Virus record (IMG/VR): IMGVR_UViG_3300008119_000039
Span: 1 to 64,000 of that record
Strand: one strand, 5' to 3'
Source: a virus
Length of the DNA: 64,000 nt
Shown one piece after another: positions 13,502 through 24,512 of this stretch. How positions within the stretch are numbered: position 1 is the stretch's first letter; each line of letters opens with the position of its first letter. A program made the position numbers and the translations under genes. The notes beneath the pieces are model-generated. The model did not search any database, was not told where the DNA came from, and worked only from the letters and a program-made list of their open reading frames with translations.

Positions 13502-13562
13502 CCCTCAATTTCTGAGGGGATTACATAAATCGCTTGACTTTAATTGCAAGATAAGGTATAAT
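13501..13562 (+). promoter_or_regulatory. Stem-loop plus sigma70-type promoter cassette
   Basis: ACCCT-N9-AGGG hairpin, then TTGACT-TTAATTG..-TATAAT (13534-13562). Confidence 0.75.
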
Positions 13563-13568
13563 AAAGGT

Positions 13569-14798
13569 ATGAAGTTGAAAAGTTTAAAGGGTTTTATAGT
13601 CGAAGAAAAGAATACCCACATGGAACATCTAGAAGATCTAGTGTTCAATGAAGGTACAGTCGGCACTCAAAAAGCCATCAACTTTATCAAAGACCTCCGT
13701 GATATGTTGGCAGGTCACAGCAAAACTAAAATCTCAGCCACGGTAAAGTGGGATGGTGCACCAGCTATCTTTGCTGGTATCGATCCAAGAGATGGCAAGT
13801 TCTTTATCGCCAAAAAAGGTGTATTCAATAAAGAGCCAAAGATTTATAAAACTGCCGCAGAAATTGATGCTGATACAGATGGCGATCTAGCCGCAAAATT
13901 CAAAGTTGCTCTTACTGAGTTTAAGAAACTTGGTATCAAGTCTGGTGTGTATCAAGGCGATCTAATGTTTACCAAATCTGACTTAAAGAAACAAGTCATT
14001 GATGGCGAGTCATACATTACCTTTCACCCAAACACTATTGTGTATGCTGTTCCAGAAAACAGCGACCTAGCCACGAAAATCAAGAAAGCAAAGATTGGTG
14101 TTGTATGGCATACTACCTATACTGGAACTTCATTTGAAACAATGAAAGCATCCTTTGGTAAAGGTATTGTTGAACACTTAACAGCTTCACCAAGTATCTG
14201 GATGGATGATGCCACATATAAAGACTACTCTGGCACTGCTTCTTTTACTGCCGATGAAACCGTAAAACTAAATTCTATTATTACCGCAGCCCAAGCTAAA
14301 TTAAATAGTATTACGCCAGCAGCTTTAAATGCCATAAGTCAAAATGAAGAATTGTTAATTCAGATTAAAACATACAACAATACAAAGATTCGTTCTGGTG
14401 AGGGATTCGCAAATACCAAAGAACACGTTAAAGGATTGTTTGATTATATCCACGCTAAACTAGAACCAAAGCAAAAAACCGAAAAGGGTAAAGCTGCTGG
14501 TGAAGCAAAACGCAAAGAAATATTAAAATACTTTGCTGAGCATAAACCAAGTGATGTTCAAGCAATCTTTGATCTAGTCAATATTCTTACCGATGCCAAA
14601 GAAATGGTTGTCACAAAGATGAATCAAGCTGGTCATATTTCTACGTTTCTTAAAACTGCAAGCGGATTTAAAACAACAAGCGTTGAGGGATTTGTTGCCA
14701 TTGATAGATTGAAGGGTGGTGCTGTTAAAGTTATTAACCGCATGGAATTTAGTCGTTCAAATTTCTCTGCTGACATTATCAAAGGGTGGCAAAGATGA
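13569..14798 (+). CDS. Conserved T4-like phage protein with ATP-dependent ligase/nucleotidyltransferase-like motifs
   Basis: TVKWDGAP (KxDG), YQGDLMF, VEGFVA, KVINR; capsid-targeting-like N-terminus KSLKGFIVE. Confidence 0.65.
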   Translation: MKLKSLKGFIVEEKNTHMEHLEDLVFNEGTVGTQKAINFIKDLRDMLAGHSKTKISATVKWDGAPAIFAGIDPRDGKFFIAKKGVFNKEPKIYKTAAEIDADTDGDLAAKFKVALTEFKKLGIKSGVYQGDLMFTKSDLKKQVIDGESYITFHPNTIVYAVPENSDLATKIKKAKIGVVWHTTYTGTSFETMKASFGKGIVEHLTASPSIWMDDATYKDYSGTASFTADETVKLNSIITAAQAKLNSITPAALNAISQNEELLIQIKTYNNTKIRSGEGFANTKEHVKGLFDYIHAKLEPKQKTEKGKAAGEAKRKEILKYFAEHKPSDVQAIFDLVNILTDAKEMVVTKMNQAGHISTFLKTASGFKTTSVEGFVAIDRLKGGAVKVINRMEFSRSNFSADIIKGWQR

Positions 14799-15133
14799 AA
14801 TATATTTTAGTAGCTGCACTATTTTTAAGCGGATGTTCAGTAATATTACCAGTTAAACACGACCCAGCATTATTCAATAATCTAGTTGAAGTTAAGGTTG
14901 CTGTTGATAAACTAAATTGTGAAAACAAAGACTGGTTAGATGCGCAAAATAAAATTACACATCTAAGAGTTTATACTGAATTGAGAAAAGACCCACAAGC
15001 AAATTCTGTGGTTCAACTTGGTGAAGCGATCGAAAAGGCAAAACAATCTAACAACAAGACGTTTTGTGAGTCTATTTTAAGAATCAATAAGACTCGCATT
15101 GACGTTATCGCAGACGCATGGAGAGGCAGATGA
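14795..15133 (+). CDS. Lipoprotein
   Basis: Signal peptide with lipobox LSGC. Confidence 0.7.
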   Translation: MKYILVAALFLSGCSVILPVKHDPALFNNLVEVKVAVDKLNCENKDWLDAQNKITHLRVYTELRKDPQANSVVQLGEAIEKAKQSNNKTFCESILRINKTRIDVIADAWRGR

Positions 15134-15363
15134 TTCTAGAAGAATTAAGAGAAGTGGCTGGAGTAGGTGGACCTGCTGCACAATTAGCCAATGAACTATT
15201 GGTATTAGCCGATAAAAAGGCTATTGGTGAGTTAAGTCAAGAAGAGTTTGAGTATCTAGTTAGAGAAATCGCTGATATACGTGCTCAACAGGATTTAGCC
15301 AATGATGAGATTGCTTGTCGTTGGATCGTTGCTGCTGCCCAAGCTATTATTTCTGTGGTGTAG
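15130..15363 (+). CDS. Hypothetical protein
   Basis: ATGA overlap with the upstream gene, GGAG RBS. Confidence 0.65.
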   Translation: MILEELREVAGVGGPAAQLANELLVLADKKAIGELSQEEFEYLVREIADIRAQQDLANDEIACRWIVAAAQAIISVV

Positions 15364-15376
15364 GAGATAGAGAAAA

Positions 15377-15384
15377 GCTAAATA
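15377..15384 (+). promoter_or_regulatory. T4-type late promoter
   Basis: GCTAAATA about 35 bp upstream of the ATG. Confidence 0.6.
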
Positions 15385-15418
15385 ATAGGTTGAAACTACA
15401 ATTTTATAGATGGATTAA

Positions 15419-17887
15419 ATGAAGAAATACAGACAATTAATAAAAGAACTTCCTACAAAGAAAGTAGTGTTTGCCTTTGGTCGGTTCAATCCACCGACAA
15501 CAGGTCACGAATTGCTTGTAAAGACAGTCAAAAAGCTGGCTAGCACTGGTAGTGCTGACCACGCCATCTACGCTTCAAAAACTCAAGATGCTAAAAAGAA
15601 TCCACTCTCAGTGGATAAAAAAGTTCAGTACCTTGGCAAAATGTTCCCAAGCACAAAGTTTGTGGCTGCCAATCAAAACGTAAGAACTTACATCGAAGCA
15701 GTTAAAGAACTCAATAAAAAATACAAAAACCTTGTTATGGTCGCAGGTAGTGACCGTGTTCAAGCGTATCAAGAATTACTAAACAAATACAACGGCAAAG
15801 AATTTCACTTTGATACTATCGAAGTAGTATCTGCAGGTGAGCGTGATCCAGACGCAGATGATGCTTCTGGCATGTCTGGAACAAAGATGCGTAGCTTAGC
15901 TTCAAAAGGAGATTATTCTTCTTTCAAGAAAGGGTTGCCCTCAACCTTACGTGATATTGACGGTAAGCGTTTGATGAATGATGTGCGTTTAGGTATGGGC
16001 ATTGAAGCTATCAAAGAACAAGTTCGTTTTGACGTTGATGCTTTACGTGAGGAATTCTTCAAAGGTAAGATTTACACAGTTGGTCAATTTGTTGAGTCAG
16101 ACAATCAACGTTACGAAATCATTGATCGTGGTAGCAACTATCTTGTGCTAGTAAACAGCACAGGAGAAACTTGTAAGAAGTGGATTCAAGATGTTACTTT
16201 ATCTGAAGACCAATTACAAGAAGATGTTACAGGTGGACCAGCCCCAGAGCAAATTACATTTAAAGGTTACACAACTAAAAACTTTGGCAGAACTGCTGAT
16301 GCAGCCAAAGCGTTTCAAGATACAATCGCTCGTGCTTCAGAAAAAGATCCAGTGGCAGTTTTGAATGCGTTAAAGTCAACTGACACTTATATGGGTATTA
16401 ATGATCGTCACATTGCTGGCGAAGAATTAACTGACGCTGAGATTACTCAGTGGAAAGAAGCTAGAGTTAAAGCACAAGAATCATTGGCTCGTGTTGGAGA
16501 ATTTATGCATCATATGGATTACTTCCATACGCATGAACACGAACTAGAAGGTCTATTAACCAATTTCAAAGATAGCGGTAAAGGCGAATTTATGGAAGCA
16601 TTATCAGATAAGACATTACGTCCAACAGACAAGATTAAAGTTGCACGTATTATTGCTACTATGCTGGGAGTTGATAAAGTTGAAGCAACTGCAAACCCAG
16701 AGTTGTTGGTCAATACTGCATTGCGCAGAATTAAGACCAAGACATTAAATCCTGAAGCACTTAACATTGTAAATAAGATGTTGGCTTTGGCAAACGAAAT
16801 GGGCATCGATTACGATACAAATCTTATCCCACAGAAATTACAAGTTACGGAAGATGCTTCTGTAGTTGAGTTTGATCCAAAGAAAACGAATAATATCGCT
16901 CAAGGTATTATGACGTTTGATGATTACCAAAAGCTAAAACGCATGACCAATAAAGCTGGACACAGTCTTGGTCACGAAGATAATGATACATTGCGCAAGA
17001 TGAAAGTCAAGCACATGACTGAAGCCAGTGCACTGGAAAGATTCCGTGCCGCAGCTGCTGAGCGTGAAAAGAAACACGATGAGATTGAGCGTAAGCGTAA
17101 AGAAGATGCAGCAAAAGGCAAAGAAAATATGTCTGGTGCCATTGATCGTTTGGAAAAACACCTAAACAAAGAAGAAACTATTCAAGAAGATGAATTAGCC
17201 ACTTCTGATTATAAGTTATCCGCCAGTGGTCGTAAAATTCGTGCTCATCGTATCAAAGTTGGCGACAATAAAAAAGATGATGTGGAAGATATGAAAGAAG
17301 AAGCTGATATGTCTCACATTGAAGACCATAAAGATCAGCAAGAGAAAAATATCGAAGACCAGTTAATGGCTGAGTTAGATTTAACTGACGAGCAAATTGA
17401 TCACATTGTTGATTCTGCTCAAGAAGATGACTTTATCGAAGAGTATGATGATGAAGAATTATCTATTGTTGATGAAGACAGTGGCGAAGAAATCCCAGAA
17501 GAAGAATACACTGGTGTCAATGAAGAAAAACTAATGGAAGTTCTATCCAAAGTAGAACGCATCCGTGCTCGTTTACGTTTTGCTAAAACCAAAGGCAAGC
17601 GTGAGCGTAAAGCACAAATTGCCCTAAGAACACGTTCGACAAATGCTGTTGCAAATAAACGTGCACGTCGTTTGGCAATTAAGTTAATGAAGAATCGTTT
17701 ACTGCGTGGTAGAGATGCCAACAAAATCTCCATTGGTGAGAAAGAACGCATTGAACGTATAATCCAAAAACGTAAAGTTATCGTTGGACGTATTGCTTTA
17801 AAGTTAGTACCACGCATCCGTCAGATTGAGAAGTCACGTTTATCACATACTAAATTTACAAAAGGTGCACCAAATGTTGCGTTTTAA
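15419..17887 (+). CDS. Cytidylyltransferase-like (HIGH family) domain fused to long charged modular C-terminus; probable capsid-internal protein
   Basis: FAFGRFNPPTTGH, VAGSDR, SAGERDPD, MSGTKMR; N-terminus MKKYRQLIKE resembles the T4 capsid-targeting sequence. Confidence 0.8.
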   Translation: MKKYRQLIKELPTKKVVFAFGRFNPPTTGHELLVKTVKKLASTGSADHAIYASKTQDAKKNPLSVDKKVQYLGKMFPSTKFVAANQNVRTYIEAVKELNKKYKNLVMVAGSDRVQAYQELLNKYNGKEFHFDTIEVVSAGERDPDADDASGMSGTKMRSLASKGDYSSFKKGLPSTLRDIDGKRLMNDVRLGMGIEAIKEQVRFDVDALREEFFKGKIYTVGQFVESDNQRYEIIDRGSNYLVLVNSTGETCKKWIQDVTLSEDQLQEDVTGGPAPEQITFKGYTTKNFGRTADAAKAFQDTIARASEKDPVAVLNALKSTDTYMGINDRHIAGEELTDAEITQWKEARVKAQESLARVGEFMHHMDYFHTHEHELEGLLTNFKDSGKGEFMEALSDKTLRPTDKIKVARIIATMLGVDKVEATANPELLVNTALRRIKTKTLNPEALNIVNKMLALANEMGIDYDTNLIPQKLQVTEDASVVEFDPKKTNNIAQGIMTFDDYQKLKRMTNKAGHSLGHEDNDTLRKMKVKHMTEASALERFRAAAAEREKKHDEIERKRKEDAAKGKENMSGAIDRLEKHLNKEETIQEDELATSDYKLSASGRKIRAHRIKVGDNKKDDVEDMKEEADMSHIEDHKDQQEKNIEDQLMAELDLTDEQIDHIVDSAQEDDFIEEYDDEELSIVDEDSGEEIPEEEYTGVNEEKLMEVLSKVERIRARLRFAKTKGKRERKAQIALRTRSTNAVANKRARRLAIKLMKNRLLRGRDANKISIGEKERIERIIQKRKVIVGRIALKLVPRIRQIEKSRLSHTKFTKGAPNVAF

Positions 17888-18809
17888 AGAATACATCTCA
17901 GAAGTAAAGACATGTAACTGTTGGAATGGTTACAAGCGTGTTCCAGGAACTAAGCCATGTGAGCCAGGTTCTTGTGTTAAAGAATCTGCCATTGCTGAAG
18001 GTGGTCTCTGGGATAATATCCACGCTAAACAAAAACGTATTAAGGCTGGTTCTGGTGAACGTATGCGCAAACCTGGAAGCAAAGGTGCTCCAACTGATGC
18101 TGCGTTAAAAGCATCTCAAAATGAAGAAGTTGAACAGATTGATGAGTTAGATACAAAAACTTTAAAATCTTATGTTAATAAAAATCTAAAGTCTAATGAC
18201 ACTAGCTCTAAAAGAGATACTGGATTGTATACAGCGACTAATAAAATTGCTAAAACACAAGCAACTTCAACATTAGATAAAAAAGTTAAAACACTTGGTA
18301 ACACATCAGCAAGAGATCATAAAAATCCATATGAGTATGAAGCATCTCGTTCTGAATTAAAGAACAGAGGATCTCATAATTTTGCAGGACGCAAAACTAA
18401 AACTGAAGAAGTTGACCTAGAAGAAACAACCCCATACTACAACAAACCATCTTTTCTAAAGAAGATGTCTCGTATTGCTAAACAAGAACGCCAAGCACGT
18501 GAAAAAAAAGAAGCCGAAGCTAAGAAACCAGTTAAAGAAGAAACTATGGATGAAGCAGCCATCGATGCTAAAGGGCACAAAAGTTCTACTGGTGGTTTAA
18601 CTCAAAAGGGACGTGATGCATACAATGCTAAAGGTGCTAATCTACAAGCACCAGTAACTACCCCACCATCAAAGTTAAAAGCTGGCAGCAAAGCATACAA
18701 TCGTCGCAAGTCTTTCTGTGCTCGTATGAGTGGCGTTGATGGTCCAATGAAAGATGAAAAGGGTCGTCCGACTCGTAAAGCACTAGCACTACGTAAATGG
18801 AATTGTTAA
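17874..18809 (+). CDS. Modular basic polyprotein, probable capsid-internal protein
   Basis: MLRFKEYISE N-terminus; linkers EEVEQIDE, EEVDLEE, EETMDE; C-terminal RRKSFCARM...ALRKWNC module. Confidence 0.75.
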   Translation: MLRFKEYISEVKTCNCWNGYKRVPGTKPCEPGSCVKESAIAEGGLWDNIHAKQKRIKAGSGERMRKPGSKGAPTDAALKASQNEEVEQIDELDTKTLKSYVNKNLKSNDTSSKRDTGLYTATNKIAKTQATSTLDKKVKTLGNTSARDHKNPYEYEASRSELKNRGSHNFAGRKTKTEEVDLEETTPYYNKPSFLKKMSRIAKQERQAREKKEAEAKKPVKEETMDEAAIDAKGHKSSTGGLTQKGRDAYNAKGANLQAPVTTPPSKLKAGSKAYNRRKSFCARMSGVDGPMKDEKGRPTRKALALRKWNC

Positions 18810-18810
18810 T

Positions 18811-19260
18811 ATGGATGAATTGAAATTATCTCTTAAAATAACATTAGCAAATACATTTTTAATGTATTTCAAAACACAATCCTATCACTGGAATGTTGAA
18901 GGTATGTTCTTCCCGTTGTTCCACGATTTCTTTGGTGAACTTTACCAAGAAGTCTACGGAGCAGTTGATCCTCTTGCAGAAGAAATTCGTGCACTTGATG
19001 ATTACGCTCCGATGTCTCTTGACGAGTTGCACAGTACTGCAACTGTTAAAGAAGATGTAGTAAGACCAGTACTCATAAGAGATATGCTGGAAAACTTGCA
19101 ACAAGCTAATCAAGAAGTCTTAGATAGCCTAAATAAAGTGTTCGATCTAGCAACAGCAGAAAAAGAGCAAGGACTTGCTGATTTTGCTGGCAGCAGAATA
19201 GATGCCCATAAGAAACATGCTTGGATGATTCGTTCAAGTCTAAAAAAGATAGAGGAATAA
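18811..19260 (+). CDS. dps: Dps/ferritin-like DNA protection protein
   Basis: HWNVEG..F..FH..F.ELY, D.LAEEIRAL, HKKHAWMIRS. Confidence 0.9.
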   Translation: MDELKLSLKITLANTFLMYFKTQSYHWNVEGMFFPLFHDFFGELYQEVYGAVDPLAEEIRALDDYAPMSLDELHSTATVKEDVVRPVLIRDMLENLQQANQEVLDSLNKVFDLATAEKEQGLADFAGSRIDAHKKHAWMIRSSLKKIEE

Positions 19261-19261
19261 T

Positions 19262-21133
19262 ATGAATTTTAAAACATTTTTAGAGACTGTTAATAAGTCT
19301 GACATTCCAGCGTACTTACGCAAGAATGATAAGATGACCACTAAAGATCTAGAAAAAGAACGTACACAGAATCGTTCCCATCCAGAAACTATTAAAAAGA
19401 TTAATGGTACTCAGATGGAAGAAGTTGAACAGATCGATGAAAAGTCTGAACAAGCTAAACGTAATAAGACCATGAAGAATATGATGGACGCATCTCGTGG
19501 TGCACGTTATAAAGTTCAGAACAAACTAAGTGGTGATGATGTTCGTGACTGGGACGGTAAACATCCTACTCCAAGAGCACAAAACGTAGCAATTGGTCGT
19601 GCCTTGCGTAATGAAGACGCTGAACAAGTAGACGAAGGACGTATGAAAGCCATCGCAACAAATGCTCAAGAAACAGATCGTTTAAAGAAAAAAGATGATG
19701 TTCCATTCGATGGTCCATACACTAAGACTCCAGCAACTACAACAGACAAGTCTGGTGCAGTTCATACAGCTATGAGTCGTGCAAAGCACTTGGCTAAACA
19801 AGCAATGAAGAATGTTAAAGAAGAAGCTGAGGTTTTAGACGAACTGCGTCCACTAACTTATATGTCATATCACAATAAAGCTACCGCAATAGGACGAGAT
19901 GGAAAAAAAGCATTTGACAAAAGTGGTAAAGACCGATCTACTAATATTGCAAAAGCAGATAAGCGAGTGATCGACGCTGTCCATGGAAGGGGACCTCTGC
20001 CTAAACTATACCCAACTGCTAAGAAAACTACACTAGGTAAGAAAGCACAAGCTGCTATTCGCTCTGATGCTAAGTGGAATGAAGAAGTTGAATTAGAAGA
20101 AGGTTACGATAAATCTTCAGAGCATCATAAAAATGCTCGTAAAATGGCAAAAGACTATGATGGTAAAGCAACTTTTCATCCCAATGGTCACGCTGAAGTA
20201 AGAATGCGTTCAATAGTTCATGGGTATAGCACTCTTAATCCGAAAGGAACTACTTTAATGTCTGGTGAAGATTTGGCCAATCGTGCTTGTAAGGAACATG
20301 GTAAAGGTAAAGTTCAAGGTAATGTAGTTCACTTCAAAGAAGAAAAAGACGAACAAGAGTATGGTTATGAAGGCGATATGGCTTTGAATCAGTTGGCAAC
20401 GCTAACACGTTGCGCTGAAATGATTAAAGATACACTAAAGCCAGATACTGATTTGCCAGAGTGGGTTCAGTCTAAGATTACTCTTGCCACTGATTACATT
20501 CAAACTGCAGCTGACTATTTGTATTCTGAGTCTGAAGTTAATGAGGGCTACTACGAAAAGCCAGCATCAGCATATCGCCGTAAAGGTGACGAAGTGAGAG
20601 ATCCAACTCCAGTTGCTCCAGTTCCAGCTAAGAAGTATATCAAAGGTACACCTGAGAATAAAGCAGCAAGAGCAGCAAGCAAGCCAATCAATGGTATGCC
20701 AACTAATGTAAAGTCAGAAGAACTTAAAGGCAATCAACACAAGATTGATAAAAACAAGAATGGTAAGATTGATGCCCATGACTTTAAGTTACTGCGTAAA
20801 GAAGAGCAGTCTAAAGAACAATTTGAAAACGGAGAATTGGAAACAATGTCAAAATCATACAAACAATTTGTTGAATCATTAAACGAAATTAAAATGTCAG
20901 ATTTGCCATCGCGTAAAATAAGTGGTTCAAGCTACGGTGCTCAATACCACGATTCAGAAGGCGATGATGAAGAAGAAAAACCAAAAGCTAAACCAGCAGC
21001 AGATGCTGTAAAGCGTGGTCGTGGTCGTCCAGCAGGTGCTAAATCTGGTGCACGTCAAAGTGGCTCTGCCGTTAAGTCAAAGAATGGCGCAGACTACACT
21101 GGTTATAAATTACACTTACCAAATAAGAACTAA
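19262..21133 (+). CDS. Modular basic polyprotein, probable capsid-internal protein
   Basis: MNFKTFLE N-terminus; about 9 modules separated by acidic linkers; EF-hand-like DKNKNGKID and AT-hook KRGRGRP. Confidence 0.75.
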   Translation: MNFKTFLETVNKSDIPAYLRKNDKMTTKDLEKERTQNRSHPETIKKINGTQMEEVEQIDEKSEQAKRNKTMKNMMDASRGARYKVQNKLSGDDVRDWDGKHPTPRAQNVAIGRALRNEDAEQVDEGRMKAIATNAQETDRLKKKDDVPFDGPYTKTPATTTDKSGAVHTAMSRAKHLAKQAMKNVKEEAEVLDELRPLTYMSYHNKATAIGRDGKKAFDKSGKDRSTNIAKADKRVIDAVHGRGPLPKLYPTAKKTTLGKKAQAAIRSDAKWNEEVELEEGYDKSSEHHKNARKMAKDYDGKATFHPNGHAEVRMRSIVHGYSTLNPKGTTLMSGEDLANRACKEHGKGKVQGNVVHFKEEKDEQEYGYEGDMALNQLATLTRCAEMIKDTLKPDTDLPEWVQSKITLATDYIQTAADYLYSESEVNEGYYEKPASAYRRKGDEVRDPTPVAPVPAKKYIKGTPENKAARAASKPINGMPTNVKSEELKGNQHKIDKNKNGKIDAHDFKLLRKEEQSKEQFENGELETMSKSYKQFVESLNEIKMSDLPSRKISGSSYGAQYHDSEGDDEEEKPKAKPAADAVKRGRGRPAGAKSGARQSGSAVKSKNGADYTGYKLHLPNKN

Positions 21134-21148
21134 CTAAGGGGAATTAAA

Positions 21149-21418
21149 ATGGCACTATGGTCAAATACAGACGCAGAAGGCAGCAAACCAAAATATCTAA
21201 ACACTGCTGGTAAAGCAGCTGTTGAAGGTATCTCTGCAGCAGAAGCAGCAATTGCAGCAAACAAAGCAAAGGGTGTTGCTCATGCTGGTTGGGTTACTAC
21301 TCGTACTTATACTGATGCACAAGGTCGTACTCGCAACAAGACTGAAGTTCTAGTTGCTATGGGTTCAATGACTGGCGATGATAATACTGATGATACTACT
21401 ATTGGTATTGATGCCTAA
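21149..21418 (+). CDS. Hypothetical (possibly virion) protein
   Basis: AGGGG RBS; MALW...HAGWV...KTEVLVAM pattern. Confidence 0.65.
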   Translation: MALWSNTDAEGSKPKYLNTAGKAAVEGISAAEAAIAANKAKGVAHAGWVTTRTYTDAQGRTRNKTEVLVAMGSMTGDDNTDDTTIGIDA

Positions 21419-21457
21419 ATAGTAGTAATGAGGGGAGATTGGCTCCCCTCTCGTTTT
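21414..21457 (+). terminator. Late promoter motif followed by GC-rich hairpin (terminator or 5' stabiliser)
   Basis: CCTAAATA 21414-21421; GAGGGGAG-attgg-CTCCCCTC 21430-21450 followed by TCGTTTT. Confidence 0.55.
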
Positions 21458-21465
21458 ACGATTGA

Positions 21466-21849
21466 TTGGAAATGAGAGAACCTTTGAGTGAAAATAACTT
21501 TCTTCTACATGCTATGCATCACTATGATAATCCGCAGTGTTCTAACATAGAAGAGTTTGAAGATGATTTAAAGAAGTTTGTTTATCTTAAGAAACTAATA
21601 TATCGTTATAAGAATGTTGGTGAGTTAAGAGAAAGATTAATCTTAAATCATATAATTGTTCTCTACAATATTTTTGGCGATGAAACAACTCGTATGTTGT
21701 TTCATAAGATTGAAGAGCCATTGTGGCCACAGTTAGTCACGTTTTTGGTTTATCTTAATCGTATGCCTGAAAGCGTACCTGAGTATGGAATTACCTTGGC
21801 AGATATTAAACTAGACGAAACTATTATTGCTGTATTAAGGAAGATATGA
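21466..21849 (+). CDS. Conserved T4-like hypothetical protein
   Basis: YDNPQC..EEFEDDL..LILNHIIVLYNIFG. Confidence 0.75.
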   Translation: MEMREPLSENNFLLHAMHHYDNPQCSNIEEFEDDLKKFVYLKKLIYRYKNVGELRERLILNHIIVLYNIFGDETTRMLFHKIEEPLWPQLVTFLVYLNRMPESVPEYGITLADIKLDETIIAVLRKI

Positions 21850-22379
21850 GTAGGTTAGTAGACAATCTTATTGCATACCGAATTCTGTCAATGCTTATCA
21901 AACCATTTTCAGAAACAAGTGCATACCAATTGGGTATTATCGATGATAAAGGTAAGAACCTAAAGAAGAGCAGCACACTCACAACTACCAAAGAAAAAGA
22001 CGCATACACATATTTACATCGTTTGGTGTTTAATATGAAAAAGATTATCAATCGTCTTCCAGGTGGTGAGTCAAAGCTAAAGAATTTAGTTAGTGCGTTC
22101 TTTCTAGTAAAAGAATACTACGAAACAAACGATCGTTCATTATCACTTATGGAAGAACGATATAATACACTACTGGAAAAAGTAAGTAAATATAATTTAA
22201 CTCTAGTTGAAGAAGAAATGCTTATTGTTGAATTTCTTGAGCGTGGTATTATATTAGAAGATGGTGTGGCAAATGTTACTGGTGCTGCTGTTTCAACAGA
22301 TACTCCTGCTCCATTGAAGAAAGATATTAAAAAGTATAAACAGATCGCTAGAAGAAAAATTCCAGTAGAGGTTGCATAA
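21846..22379 (+). CDS. Conserved T4-like hypothetical protein
   Basis: AYQLGIIDDKGK..AYTYLHRLVFNMKK; translationally coupled. Confidence 0.7.
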   Translation: MSRLVDNLIAYRILSMLIKPFSETSAYQLGIIDDKGKNLKKSSTLTTTKEKDAYTYLHRLVFNMKKIINRLPGGESKLKNLVSAFFLVKEYYETNDRSLSLMEERYNTLLEKVSKYNLTLVEEEMLIVEFLERGIILEDGVANVTGAAVSTDTPAPLKKDIKKYKQIARRKIPVEVA

Positions 22380-22822
22380 TGTGGATGTTGAGTTTTATTC
22401 CAGACGCAATACTACTCTGGACAATTCATATTATATTGATAGCTGGTGTAATTGGTGTTGCTGCATCATACACAGTATTTAAATTTCCATTTATAAATCG
22501 TTATCGTTTACCAATTCAAATAATTTCATTTCTGTTGGTAGTTGTTGGTATCTTCTTTGAAGGTAGTTATGCAACAGAGAAAAGCTGGCGTGATCGTGTA
22601 GCGGAATTACAAGAAAAAGTAGCAAAAGCAGAAGCCCAGTCTAAAGTAGCAAATGAAAATATAAAAACTGTCTACGTAGACAAAGTAAGAATTGTTAAAG
22701 AACAACAAGTAGTTGTTCAAGAAAAGATTAAAACTGTTGAATTAAAGATTGATTCACAGTGTAAAATAACTGCGGATACCGTTGATATTTTAAACGAAGC
22801 AGCAAAGGGTAGTAAGAAATGA
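22379..22822 (+). CDS. Inner-membrane spanin (Rz-like)
   Basis: N-terminal TM helices, coiled coil, C-terminal Cys; followed by a lipoprotein gene. Confidence 0.65.
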   Translation: MWMLSFIPDAILLWTIHIILIAGVIGVAASYTVFKFPFINRYRLPIQIISFLLVVVGIFFEGSYATEKSWRDRVAELQEKVAKAEAQSKVANENIKTVYVDKVRIVKEQQVVVQEKIKTVELKIDSQCKITADTVDILNEAAKGSKK

Positions 22823-23079
22823 AACTCTTGTTACTTATTCCTGCAGTTCTTTTAACTGGATGTTTGGTCACTCCAGTTAAACAAAACTTTCCTGAAGTAC
22901 CACCTGAAATTATGATAGCATGTCCTGACCTAAAAACTGTGGAGCCAACTGAAAAACTATCTGAAGTTTTGAAAGTTGTTGTCGATAACTATGGGCAATA
23001 TCACGAGTGTCGTGCCAAAGTAGATGCATGGCTAGAGTGGTATAAAACCCAGAAACAAATTTTTAAGACTGTAAACTAA
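22819..23079 (+). CDS. Outer-membrane spanin lipoprotein (Rz1-like)
   Basis: Lipobox LTGC, Pro-rich PEVPPE..CP, NY..Y.EC. Confidence 0.7.
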   Translation: MKLLLLIPAVLLTGCLVTPVKQNFPEVPPEIMIACPDLKTVEPTEKLSEVLKVVVDNYGQYHECRAKVDAWLEWYKTQKQIFKTVN

Positions 23080-23080
23080 G

Positions 23081-23437
23081 ATGGAACTACCAGAAAGACT
23101 CGCTAAATTGGAAGCACAAGTAGAAACAATAAAAGAGGATGTCAAAGAATTGAAGCACGATATCAAAGAAGTGCATTCTCGTTTGACTACTTCAAACAGA
23201 GAAATCGTGGACAAGATTGACGATATGCAAACACGTATTGAACACAAGATGCAAGCTAATGCAAAGATCAATCAAGATCAACACGAAGTCATTCGTAAAG
23301 ATGTCGTTGAAGATCTAGAAAGAATGAATACCCGTGTTTCTGCATTGGAACAGTGGAAGTGGTATGTAATCGGTGGTGCTGCTGTTGCAGGGTTTGTTCT
23401 TGGACACATCAACGAGATCGCAAACTACATAAAATAA
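23081..23437 (+). CDS. Coiled-coil protein with C-terminal TM (holin/XhlA-like candidate)
   Basis: ERLAKLE coiled coil, WKWYVIGGAAVAGFVL TM; next to the spanins. Confidence 0.5.
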   Translation: MELPERLAKLEAQVETIKEDVKELKHDIKEVHSRLTTSNREIVDKIDDMQTRIEHKMQANAKINQDQHEVIRKDVVEDLERMNTRVSALEQWKWYVIGGAAVAGFVLGHINEIANYIK

Positions 23438-23489
23438 ATTTTCTTTTTATTATGAATCAGAGTAAAATTGTTACTCTTGTGGGGTTATT

Positions 23490-24512
23490 ATGCTATACAT
23501 TGACAACAAATTTGCAAGTATTCTTGGATCACGTCTAAGAAACTTTAAACAAAAAAACGATTATCTGTGGAACTATTCTTGCCCAGTATGCGGGGATAGT
23601 TCTAAGAATAAATTAAAGGCACGTGGATACATCTACCGTAAAGGTTCTGATTTATTCGTTCGGTGTCATAACTGCAACTACGGTTCAAATCTTGGTAGCT
23701 TAATCAAGTATGTAGATGCTAAACTTTATGATGAGTACGTTCTTGAACGCTACAAAGGTGGTGCTAGTAAACACAACGCACACAAAGATGTGGCAGCAAT
23801 CCTCCCAGAAGAAACCCCAGAAGTATTTCTAGAAGATGCTATTCTAGAGAGTTTGGCTCGCCTAGATACGTTAGACATCACACACCCTGCTGTAAAATAT
23901 TTAATTAAAAGAAAGATTCCAAAACAATATTGGAATCTACTTTATTTTGCACCTAAGTTTAAAAAGTTTACCAACTCAGTAACACCTAAGTTTCAGGAAC
24001 CAATTGAAGGTGATCATCCAAGAATGATCATTCCGTTTTTTAACCCAGCAGGTAAATGTTTTGCTTATCAAGGTAGAGCGTATGGCGATGAGCAACCCAA
24101 GTACTATACAATTAAAGTTGATGAAACACAGGAGAAAATATATGGACTCGATCGCTTGGATTATAGCAAACGCATATACGTTGTTGAAGGACCAATTGAT
24201 TCGTTATTCTTACCGAATTCAATTGCTGTTTCAGGAGCAAGTTTTGATACCCCTACTATTCGGCAGTTACTTACTAATGCAACGATTGTAATGGACAATG
24301 AACCCCGCAATAAAGATATAGCAAGACAACTTGAAAAATATATCGATTTGGGGTATAATGTAGTTATGTATCCTGATTCAGTTCAGGAAAAAGATATTAA
24401 CGATATGGTTTTATCGGGTAGATCGCCTGATGAAATTCTAGAACTCATAAATACCAATACCTTCACTGGTATGGAAGCGAAATTAAAATATGCGAATTGG
24501 AGAAAGAATTGA
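23490..24512 (+). CDS. 61: DNA primase (gp61)
   Basis: CPVCGDS...CHNC zinc finger; VEGPIDS and DNEPRN..KDIND TOPRIM motifs. Confidence 0.95.
   Translation: MLYIDNKFASILGSRLRNFKQKNDYLWNYSCPVCGDSSKNKLKARGYIYRKGSDLFVRCHNCNYGSNLGSLIKYVDAKLYDEYVLERYKGGASKHNAHKDVAAILPEETPEVFLEDAILESLARLDTLDITHPAVKYLIKRKIPKQYWNLLYFAPKFKKFTNSVTPKFQEPIEGDHPRMIIPFFNPAGKCFAYQGRAYGDEQPKYYTIKVDETQEKIYGLDRLDYSKRIYVVEGPIDSLFLPNSIAVSGASFDTPTIRQLLTNATIVMDNEPRNKDIARQLEKYIDLGYNVVMYPDSVQEKDINDMVLSGRSPDEILELINTNTFTGMEAKLKYANWRKN
24331..24359 (+). promoter_or_regulatory. Internal sigma70-type promoter upstream of thyX
   Basis: TTGAAA-17 bp-TATAAT. Confidence 0.5.

Follow-up and report, generated by a model that had tools for sequence, protein, structure and literature searches.

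Three genes of an uncultured, T4-related freshwater phage, ORF0, ORF1 and ORF2, probably encode precursors of capsid-internal cargo, polyproteins that, to judge from their sequences, would be packaged and cut by the prohead protease. They lie at 15419–21133 of the window, the 64,000-nucleotide stretch analysed here, which is the first 64 kb of the 84.5-kb IMG/VR contig IMGVR_UViG_3300008119_000039. Open reading frames (ORFs) 1 (ATG 17874 to 18809, 311 amino acids, aa) and 2 (19262–21133, 623 aa) are chains of 25–95-aa modules with acidic linkers between them, and the tail of ORF0, the cytidylyltransferase gene upstream, is part of the same system. The initial annotation of this stretch had described both chains in these terms, with modules of 25–80 aa, including the openings that resemble capsid-targeting peptides (MLRFKEYISE in ORF1, MNFKTFLE in ORF2) and an internal MSKSYKQFVE at ORF2 residues 529–538, and the sequences bear it out. 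The longest-ORF call extends ORF1 to an upstream TTG at 17826; homologues begin at ATG 17874. Net charge is +27 for ORF1 and +17 for ORF2, and most predicted pieces are basic (module K is acidic, DUF6321 carries +14).

The closest relative used for comparison is a sibling phage (G001), a complete IMG/VR genome of 161,882 bp with direct terminal repeats and ~92% nucleotide (nt) identity over the common backbone. Proteins of the window and of G001 were divided into 25 indexed modules, which were mapped onto all ORFs of 160 related loci. The chains of the window are built as follows.

15419–17887, + strand: ORF0, with leader MKKYRQLIKE, a cytidylyltransferase/NMNAT-like domain (PF01467, phrog_3041), a modular tail of variable content and a conserved C-terminus that is first acidic and then basic
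17874–17903, + strand: ORF1 leader MLRFKEYISE, like a capsid-targeting sequence (aromatic at 4 and 7, Ile 8, Glu 10)
17904–17999, + strand: ORF1 module A, a 4-Cys peptide (residues 11–37, ending V-K-E), and mini-linker SAIAE (38–42); found in 31 ORFs of related loci
18000–18146, + strand: ORF1 module B, a basic GLWDNIHAK... peptide (phrog_16028), and linker EEVEQIDE (18123–18146)
18147–18425, + strand: ORF1 module C (residues 92–184), linker EEVDLEE (18405–18425)
18426–18554, + strand: ORF1 module D (residues 185–227), ending in a V-K-E / ETMDE double site
18555–18809, + strand: ORF1 module E, which is DUF6321 (residues 228–311, net +14; PF19846, E 7e-24), and stop codon
19262–19441, + strand: ORF2 short leader MNFKTFLE (19262–19285) and module F, linker EEVEQIDE (19418–19441)
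19442–19843, + strand: ORF2 modules G (61–125, linker EDAEQVDE) and H (126–194, V-K-E / EAEVLDE double site)
19844–20341, + strand: ORF2 modules I (195–280, linker EEVELEE at 20081–20101) and J (281–360, ending F-K-E), both rare elsewhere
20342–20545, + strand: ORF2 module K, an acidic helical unit (net -8, phrog_32745) ending V-N-E
20546–20845, + strand: ORF2 modules L (429–487) and M (EF-hand-like loop, 488–528); M is found in 82 ORFs
20846–21133, + strand: internal leader-like MSKSYKQFVE (529–538), module N with AT-hook-like GRGRP (539–623), stop codon

The leaders fit the capsid-targeting sequence (CTS) of phage T4 at the mapped residues, in line with the suggestion made in the initial annotation that they would direct the proteins to the capsid. 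In T4, targeting depends on residues 4 and 7 of this sequence and processing on residues 8 and 10 (PMC9026906; this and all other papers are cited from excerpts). All four positions are matched by the leaders of ORF1 and ORF0, and that of ORF2 is a shortened variant (F3, F6, E8). T4 ipII and ipIII begin MKTYQEFIAE and ipI begins MKTFKEFT, and the module proteins of the 160 related loci start M[KLI][ST]FK[EQ][YF][LI]xE, some of them (MLSFKQFIAE, MKTFKEFTE) being nearly identical to the T4 sequences. Scanning G001 from every Met on both strands, with the long 4/7/8/10 pattern and a form shorter by one residue that was written to fit ORF2, gave five matches. Three are the adjacent homologues of ORF0, ORF1 (both long) and ORF2 (short form only); the others lie 217 residues inside the RNR small subunit and in a 116-aa ORF. 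This genome-wide scan replaced a control (51/939) that proved to be contaminated with additional leader-bearing genes from these loci, and a looser regular expression was dropped after it had matched 25 of the 230 G001 genes.

All eight linkers listed in the initial annotation were recovered: EEVEQIDE (ORF1 84–91 and ORF2 53–60), EEVDLEE (ORF1 178–184), EETMDE (ORF1 222–227), EDAEQVDE (ORF2 118–125), EEAEVLDE (ORF2 187–194), EEVELEE (ORF2 274–280) and SEVNE (ORF2 424–428). The 23-nt linker DNA recurs as exact copies at 18123 and 19418 (0 in 100 shuffles), as had been noted. The site at 20081, taken for a variant of it, has more than three mismatches from the 23-mer; it does have a partner, the EEVDLEE linker DNA, to which it is identical at 20 of 22 positions (18404 and 20080 pair). 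A strict linker pattern has six matches in the 131 genes called on the contig, every one of them within ORF1 or ORF2, and four in the 230 genes of G001, all in the two homologous genes. Triplets of a hydrophobic residue, any residue and Glu (h-x-E) fall in the leader or linkers in 8 of 8 cases in ORF1 and in 10–11 of 12 in ORF2, and C-terminal modules end in basic tails without an acidic linker.

Conservation at the junctions is confined to two positions. Six module families were chosen for a clear conserved start, and in the 76 distinct contexts upstream of them P1 is Glu in 68, P3 is L, I, V, M or F in 71 and both hold in 67, against a background of h-x-E triplets at 2.5% of positions in 140 chain proteins. 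P3 is mostly Leu (35) or Ile (27), with V (5), F (2) and M (2) making up the remainder, and P2 differs between contexts (D, E, K, A, S, T, Q, Y, F, L or N). Identical module starts stand behind a leader or a linker, as in leader-E/AAVDAKG and ...ELDE/AAVDAKG or leader-E/ALKGNQHK and ...VDE/ALKGNQHK (slash, junction). In the DUF6321 proteins of T4-class loci, h-x-E ends 12–14 residues before an invariant GGL in 52 of 53 distinct contexts; those of T7-class and some unclassified loci either have a Met start at the junction position or are fusions without h-x-E. Modules B and E occur in the T7-like phages HTVC168P and KBS-P-1A as very basic genes that have no leader, encode 49–85 aa and stand between the genes for scaffold and capsid; the free-standing gene of module B encodes 49–51 aa in T7-like phages. 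Just past the scaffold gene of HTVC168P, at 2403–2510, lies a gene for 35 aa, about half of them Lys, and the free-standing B and DUF6321 genes come next; this looks like a modest group of polybasic peptides associated with the head.

The linker and leader forms go together with a prohead protease. In G001, a Peptidase S77 gene (103975–104628; PF03420, E 1.7e-38) sits between gp68-like and gp22, and gp23 has VFTE/A aligned with FLTE/A of T4. All five records with leader or linker forms (G001, G007, G008, G009, G010) carry PF03420, and none of the three that have Met-start forms or fusions lacking h-x-E and are rated 100% complete (G002, G003, G011) does; three further PF03420-negative records are only 34–58% complete and are uninformative.

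The gene order of the window at 15419–23490, with the same enzyme family, recurs in the cultured cyanophages S-SM1, S-CREM2 and S-SCSM1, and syntenic homologues have been detected in their virions by mass spectrometry (MS); by analogy, this supports the virion location proposed in the initial annotation. The NMNAT/cytidylyltransferase was detected in S-SM1 virions (PMC3037559). In S-CREM2 the ORF0-family enzyme was found together with the products of ORF155 and ORF156, which come next, and with the Lys-rich ORF160 (PMC10665884), whose gene adjoins a DUF7207 gene, as in the window. S-SCSM1 virions contain the ORF0-family enzyme (PMC9602691), and the S-SCSM1 record labels the whole syntenic block (ORF89–93, 95 and 97) as virion protein. 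Within that block, ORF91 starts MKSFLQFLKE, and ORF89 and ORF92 hold the linkers KEEVENVDE and KEEVELDE. ORF93 of the same phage (8511–8720, a 69-aa ‘virion protein’) carries a leader-like TFKEFLEYIE at its C-terminus, which could be the remnant of a fused or split cargo gene. The available parts of the three papers treat such proteins as unexplained virion-associated proteins and do not mention leaders, linkers or processing (PMC3037559, PMC10665884, PMC9602691).

Orthologous chains are not collinear, and the proposal that modules are shuffled at the linkers holds both for the 92%-identical G001 and for the 160 loci. Nucleotide identity between the window and G001 is 83–93% and is broken inside ORF0, ORF1 and ORF2 only, with the breakpoints at linkers. 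ORF1 of G001 has 126 aa (leader, A and E), to which the window adds B, C and D (183 aa) between two V-K-E codons. The two ORF2 proteins have in common F, the core of H, L1 (at a different position in the order), L2-M and N; G, I, J and K are found only in the window and P, Q and R only in G001, and nt identity stops at 19411. The ORF0 tail of G001 has two extra inserts (272 aa and 53 aa), again at linkers. The 160 loci hold 346 distinct module-bearing ORFs with 76 module orders, of which 65 orders comprise at least two modules and cover 141 ORFs; modules shift between the ORF0, ORF1 and ORF2 types, and the ends of BLAST segments cluster at linkers. Module J occurs in one other ORF of the related loci and module I in none. 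The counterpart of module K is a small stand-alone gene in Synechococcus myoviruses.

Another conceivable explanation is that the linkers are kept mainly as DNA-level recombination sites for cassette exchange, h-x-E being a by-product of repeated codons. The 23-nt linker DNA does recur in two genes, and in four freshwater metagenome runs from four studies the contigs of three runs stop at 19410, at a linker, while linker 23-mers run on into other modules within those samples. These contig ends and 23-mers fit linkers as branch points, and the joints are not assignable to this phage because their sides are shorter than 30 nt at 85% likeness. Many linkers, however, share no DNA and no residues beyond P3 and P1 (for example ELLE, ALYE, IKE, VNE and LQE), and the leaders end in the same way. 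Recombination at linkers is also compatible with cleavage, and as the main reason for their conservation it is the least probable of the explanations considered.

Several points weigh against packaging and cleavage of these chains. The leader pattern was defined after the data had been inspected, as were the boundaries of module families K, M and L2; P1 Glu with a hydrophobic P3 is found in only 28 of 48 contexts of M and 6 of 15 of L2. Since the contexts are related by descent, the junction counts measure constraint and not independent events. The strict or extended acidic motif (EEVExhDE) does not occur in the canonical substrates of G001 (gp22, gp23, gp67-like and gp68-like); the acidic motif therefore exceeds the needs of the protease, and the whole motif is not claimed as its recognition site. 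The protease itself is inferred from the sibling genome because the 84.5-kb contig is without head genes; an S77 protease was not seen among ORFs of at least 100 aa in the last 20 kb of the contig, of which no PF03420 search was made. The B/C linker is modelled as a helix. The authors of the S-CREM2 and S-SCSM1 studies point out that abundant non-structural proteins may co-purify with virions (PMC10665884, PMC9602691). At the DNA level, 19411–19435 (the F/G linker) is bridged by none of the contigs listed from the four runs, and a chimeric join of the window assembly at this linker is possible; metagenome contigs confirm the rest of ORF1 and ORF2 (17400–19410 with two differences, 19436–21400 with one).

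Some of these points would suit a product that is packaged but stays uncut between its modules, losing the leader at most, with the acidic linkers as flexible, charge-balancing spacers of a beads-on-a-string chain. Cleavage has been seen nowhere so far, the MS data of S-SCSM1 and S-CREM2 show presence only, the extended motif is foreign to canonical substrates and one linker is predicted to be helical. We nevertheless consider an uncut chain unlikely. Only P1 and P3 are constant in the linkers, with P2 and the rest free to vary; leader ends and linker ends interchange before the same module start; the podovirus stand-alone forms begin at that same residue; and the linker forms co-occur with the S77 protease. 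A multi-core precursor of the RiPP type (ribosomally synthesized and post-translationally modified peptides) was rejected, there being no adjoining modifying enzyme and the modules being folded or large.

The position of the genes is a further point on the negative side, as they lie among replication genes behind a sigma-70-type promoter-like site. That site likely starts a transcription unit that includes the cargo genes, as far as its consensus match goes. The apparent unit runs over 7.9 kb from the promoter at 13534 to a hairpin at 21430 and comprises the phrog_455 gene, two small ORFs, ORF0, ORF1, Dps, ORF2 and an 89-aa gene. Its features outside the chains are listed here.

13534–13562, + strand: sigma-70-type promoter-like site TTGACT-17-TATAAT, 11 of 12 consensus matches (consensus match only), directly after a hairpin at 13502–13518
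13569–14798, + strand: 409-aa phrog_455 protein with the variant leader MKLKSLKGFIVEE, a possible further cargo protein
18811–19260, + strand: Dps/ferritin-like gene between the chain genes, without a leader (context)
21149–21418, + strand: 89-aa protein related to the phrog_613 ‘head protein’; ORF95, the counterpart in S-SCSM1, carries the annotation virion protein
21430–21450, + strand: terminator-like GC-rich hairpin closing the unit

The ATAAATA late-promoter box is absent from 13–24 kb, and CTAAATA is not enriched (11 against 15 expected). Early or middle proteins that remain in the cytoplasm, with an N-terminal helix and linkers serving another role such as nucleic-acid chaperoning or host takeover, would agree with this setting between the helicase and the primase/RNR genes, with the promoter-like site and with the missing late box. 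Such a role is very improbable all the same, given the syntenic homologues in virions of three cultured cyanophages, the near identity of the leader to the T4 CTS and the T7-like modules that sit between scaffold and capsid genes; the genes of the T4 internal proteins (IPs) likewise lie outside the head cluster. Across the window ATAAATA is strongly depleted (7 against 23 expected; 100 of 100 shuffles had at least 7), and the coding strand carries 6 of the 7 sites, which would be expected of a box reserved as a late-promoter signal.

For capsid-internal cargo released by proteolysis, the steps would be these. The leader of ~10 residues, homologous to the T4 CTS, would take the precursor into the scaffolding core of the prohead, where a gp21-type (Peptidase S77) protease is predicted from sequence conservation to cut after the Glu of h-x-E at the end of the leader and at every linker. 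In ORF1 the predicted cuts follow residues 10, 37/42, 91, 184 and 222/227. The freed small proteins, mostly basic, would remain associated with the DNA in the capsid and probably be carried into the cell along with it. Several linkers hold two sites (h-K-E, then E-x-E-x-h-D-E), so that an acidic 5–7-mer could be excised, and until its excision this peptide may neutralise the basic modules. Because any module behind a leader or a linker would get the same mature N-terminus, modules would be interchangeable; their turnover among the three genes by insertion, loss and movement is observed, and recombination at the ~25–30-nt linker DNA is its presumed cause. Every element of the cassette system put forward in the initial annotation received support of its own and met no contradiction; for release at maturation the support lies in the conserved P1 and P3, the interchangeable ends of leaders and linkers and the co-occurrence with S77, and the release and packaging themselves stay predictions from sequence.

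Candidate functions of the modules are neutralisation or condensation of the DNA and early interference with the host or its defences. We can extend this, tentatively and with rather less confidence than in the packaging itself, to a plug-and-play cargo bus run by T4-like aquatic phages, in which a CTS leader or an h-x-E linker would have whatever small protein follows it loaded into the prohead and set free with a fixed N-terminus, and the acidic spacer would be excised as a charge mask. The three genes would swap modules faster than 8% nt divergence accrues, and the pool, common to T7-like phages, would be a large, unexplored reservoir of injected proteins that includes DNA-condensing peptides and counter-defence factors.

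DUF6321 is the sole named family in ORF1 and ORF2. It covers ORF1 residues 235–309 with 84.7 bits (gathering cut-off 28.5), and modelled alone it is predicted to be a folded three-helix mini-domain with two invariant Cys (predicted local distance difference test, pLDDT, 88.4). A Foldseek comparison of the model with the PDB gave 0 matches at E <=0.001; its fold matches in BFVD are all DUF6321 proteins, and the ESM Atlas gave DUF6321 clusters only. A 679-aa BFVD entry named Ferritin/DPS domain protein also matches the DUF6321 fold, so Dps may sometimes belong to a chain. The full-length ORF1 model has a predicted TM-score (pTM) of 0.29, with pLDDT <50 at 41–44, 168–186 and 219–226, three of the four junctions. 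The initial annotation had named further modules, of which the 4-Cys peptide is present. The EF-hand-like loop of module M (EF-hand_1, 17.1 bits against a cut-off of 25.4, E 0.004) and the AT-hook of module N (AT_hook, 11.1 bits against 17.4, E 0.43) stay below the Pfam cut-offs and are resemblances only; the ‘L..T..SY..K’ units are members of a module family that is widespread, with 29 junction contexts. Pfam searches of ten separate pieces gave nothing above cut-off, and with whole ORF1 and ORF2 included they revealed no peptidase, large enzymatic or anti-restriction domain. An ‘effector or DNA-binding’ role of the modules is a guess. An alignment of the ORF2 mosaic (100 rows) had a mean column identity of 5% and was not used.

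The component parts of the system are those of the T4 internal-protein system (PMC3012670). Like T4 IPI, IPII, IPIII and Alt, the chains have a leader of ~10 residues (aromatic at 4 and 7, hydrophobic at 8, Glu at 10) and hydrophobic-x-Glu cutting, here predicted; the sibling G001 encodes an S77 protease, as T4 does, and the cargo is, as in T4, small, mostly basic, hypervariable and encoded outside the head cluster. T4 has one cargo per leader, whereas here 2–10 modules follow each leader, further sites serve as joints and modules move between genes. BLASTP of T4 ipI, ipII and ipIII gave no match in the G001 proteome at E 0.01. T4 internal proteins are hypervariable, and the missing similarity therefore lowers the case for homology of the cargo, not that for homology of the system. 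Among the matches listed, no literature description of such polyproteins was found, and none of DUF6321. To judge from the sequences, the known element would be the T4 internal-protein parts and the new one the several cargo units per leader, with protease sites as joints and rapid exchange of units.

Two other systems are analogous, not the same. In the giant phages phiKZ, 201phi2-1 and SPN3US, many head proteins, among them inner-body and ejection proteins, are also cut after Glu by gp21-like proteases, often at several sites each, but long propeptides are removed from large proteins at A-x-E or S-x-E motifs (PMC5694885, PMC9026906), and these phages have neither chains of small exchangeable modules nor a 10-residue leader of the T4 type; here P3 is L, I, V, F or M, the leaders have 8–10 residues and the chains consist of small exchangeable modules. 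Polyvalent proteins of phages and conjugative elements (Iyer et al. 2017, PMC5512222) likewise join several unrelated units in one polypeptide that is delivered with the DNA and released by proteolysis. They have large enzymatic or anti-restriction domains and an embedded peptidase, whereas the modules here span 25–95 aa, no peptidase domain was found in them and the cut is predicted to be made in trans by the prohead protease.

If the reading is true, the rule of a leader plus h-x-E joints predicts the internal, probably injected proteome of very abundant aquatic phages, the relatives of cyanomyoviruses, pelagimyophages and Melnitz. It would explain the recurrence of NMNAT/cytidylyltransferase and neighbouring hypothetical proteins in virion proteomes, and provide a catalogue of small autonomous modules for screening for DNA binding, toxicity and counter-defence. 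The genes would form a fast-evolving cassette locus whose turnover can be traced in metagenomes, and would point to a naturally occurring counterpart of the T4 packaging vector that carries several cargoes.

The phage itself carries T4-type replication genes in the window (gp43 polymerase, UvsX, gp41 helicase, gp61 primase and RNR) and 10 tRNA genes. Megablast of 15000–22000 gave no DNA-level match to cultured phages, and tblastn of ORF2 matched a single 65-aa module in five Synechococcus phage records. By the cytidylyltransferase domain, the nearest cultured relatives are Methylophilales phage Melnitz, Pelagibacter phage HTVC008M and cyanomyoviruses; the syntenic chain proteins of Melnitz and HTVC008M carry EEVELDE and EEIEIDE. 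The stretch 17400–21400 is present (0.89–0.99 of sampled words) in 20 runs of 13 studies, freshwater or lake metagenomes of 2019–2025, so the phage is widespread and persistent; two of these are labelled fungus metagenome. In G001, a 143-aa gene lies between gp68-like and the protease (103542–103973), and a 161-aa paralogue of it at 151007–151492, between the ORF1 homologue and Dps; the window is without the second copy, and the pair may represent a head-associated protein duplicated into the cargo locus.

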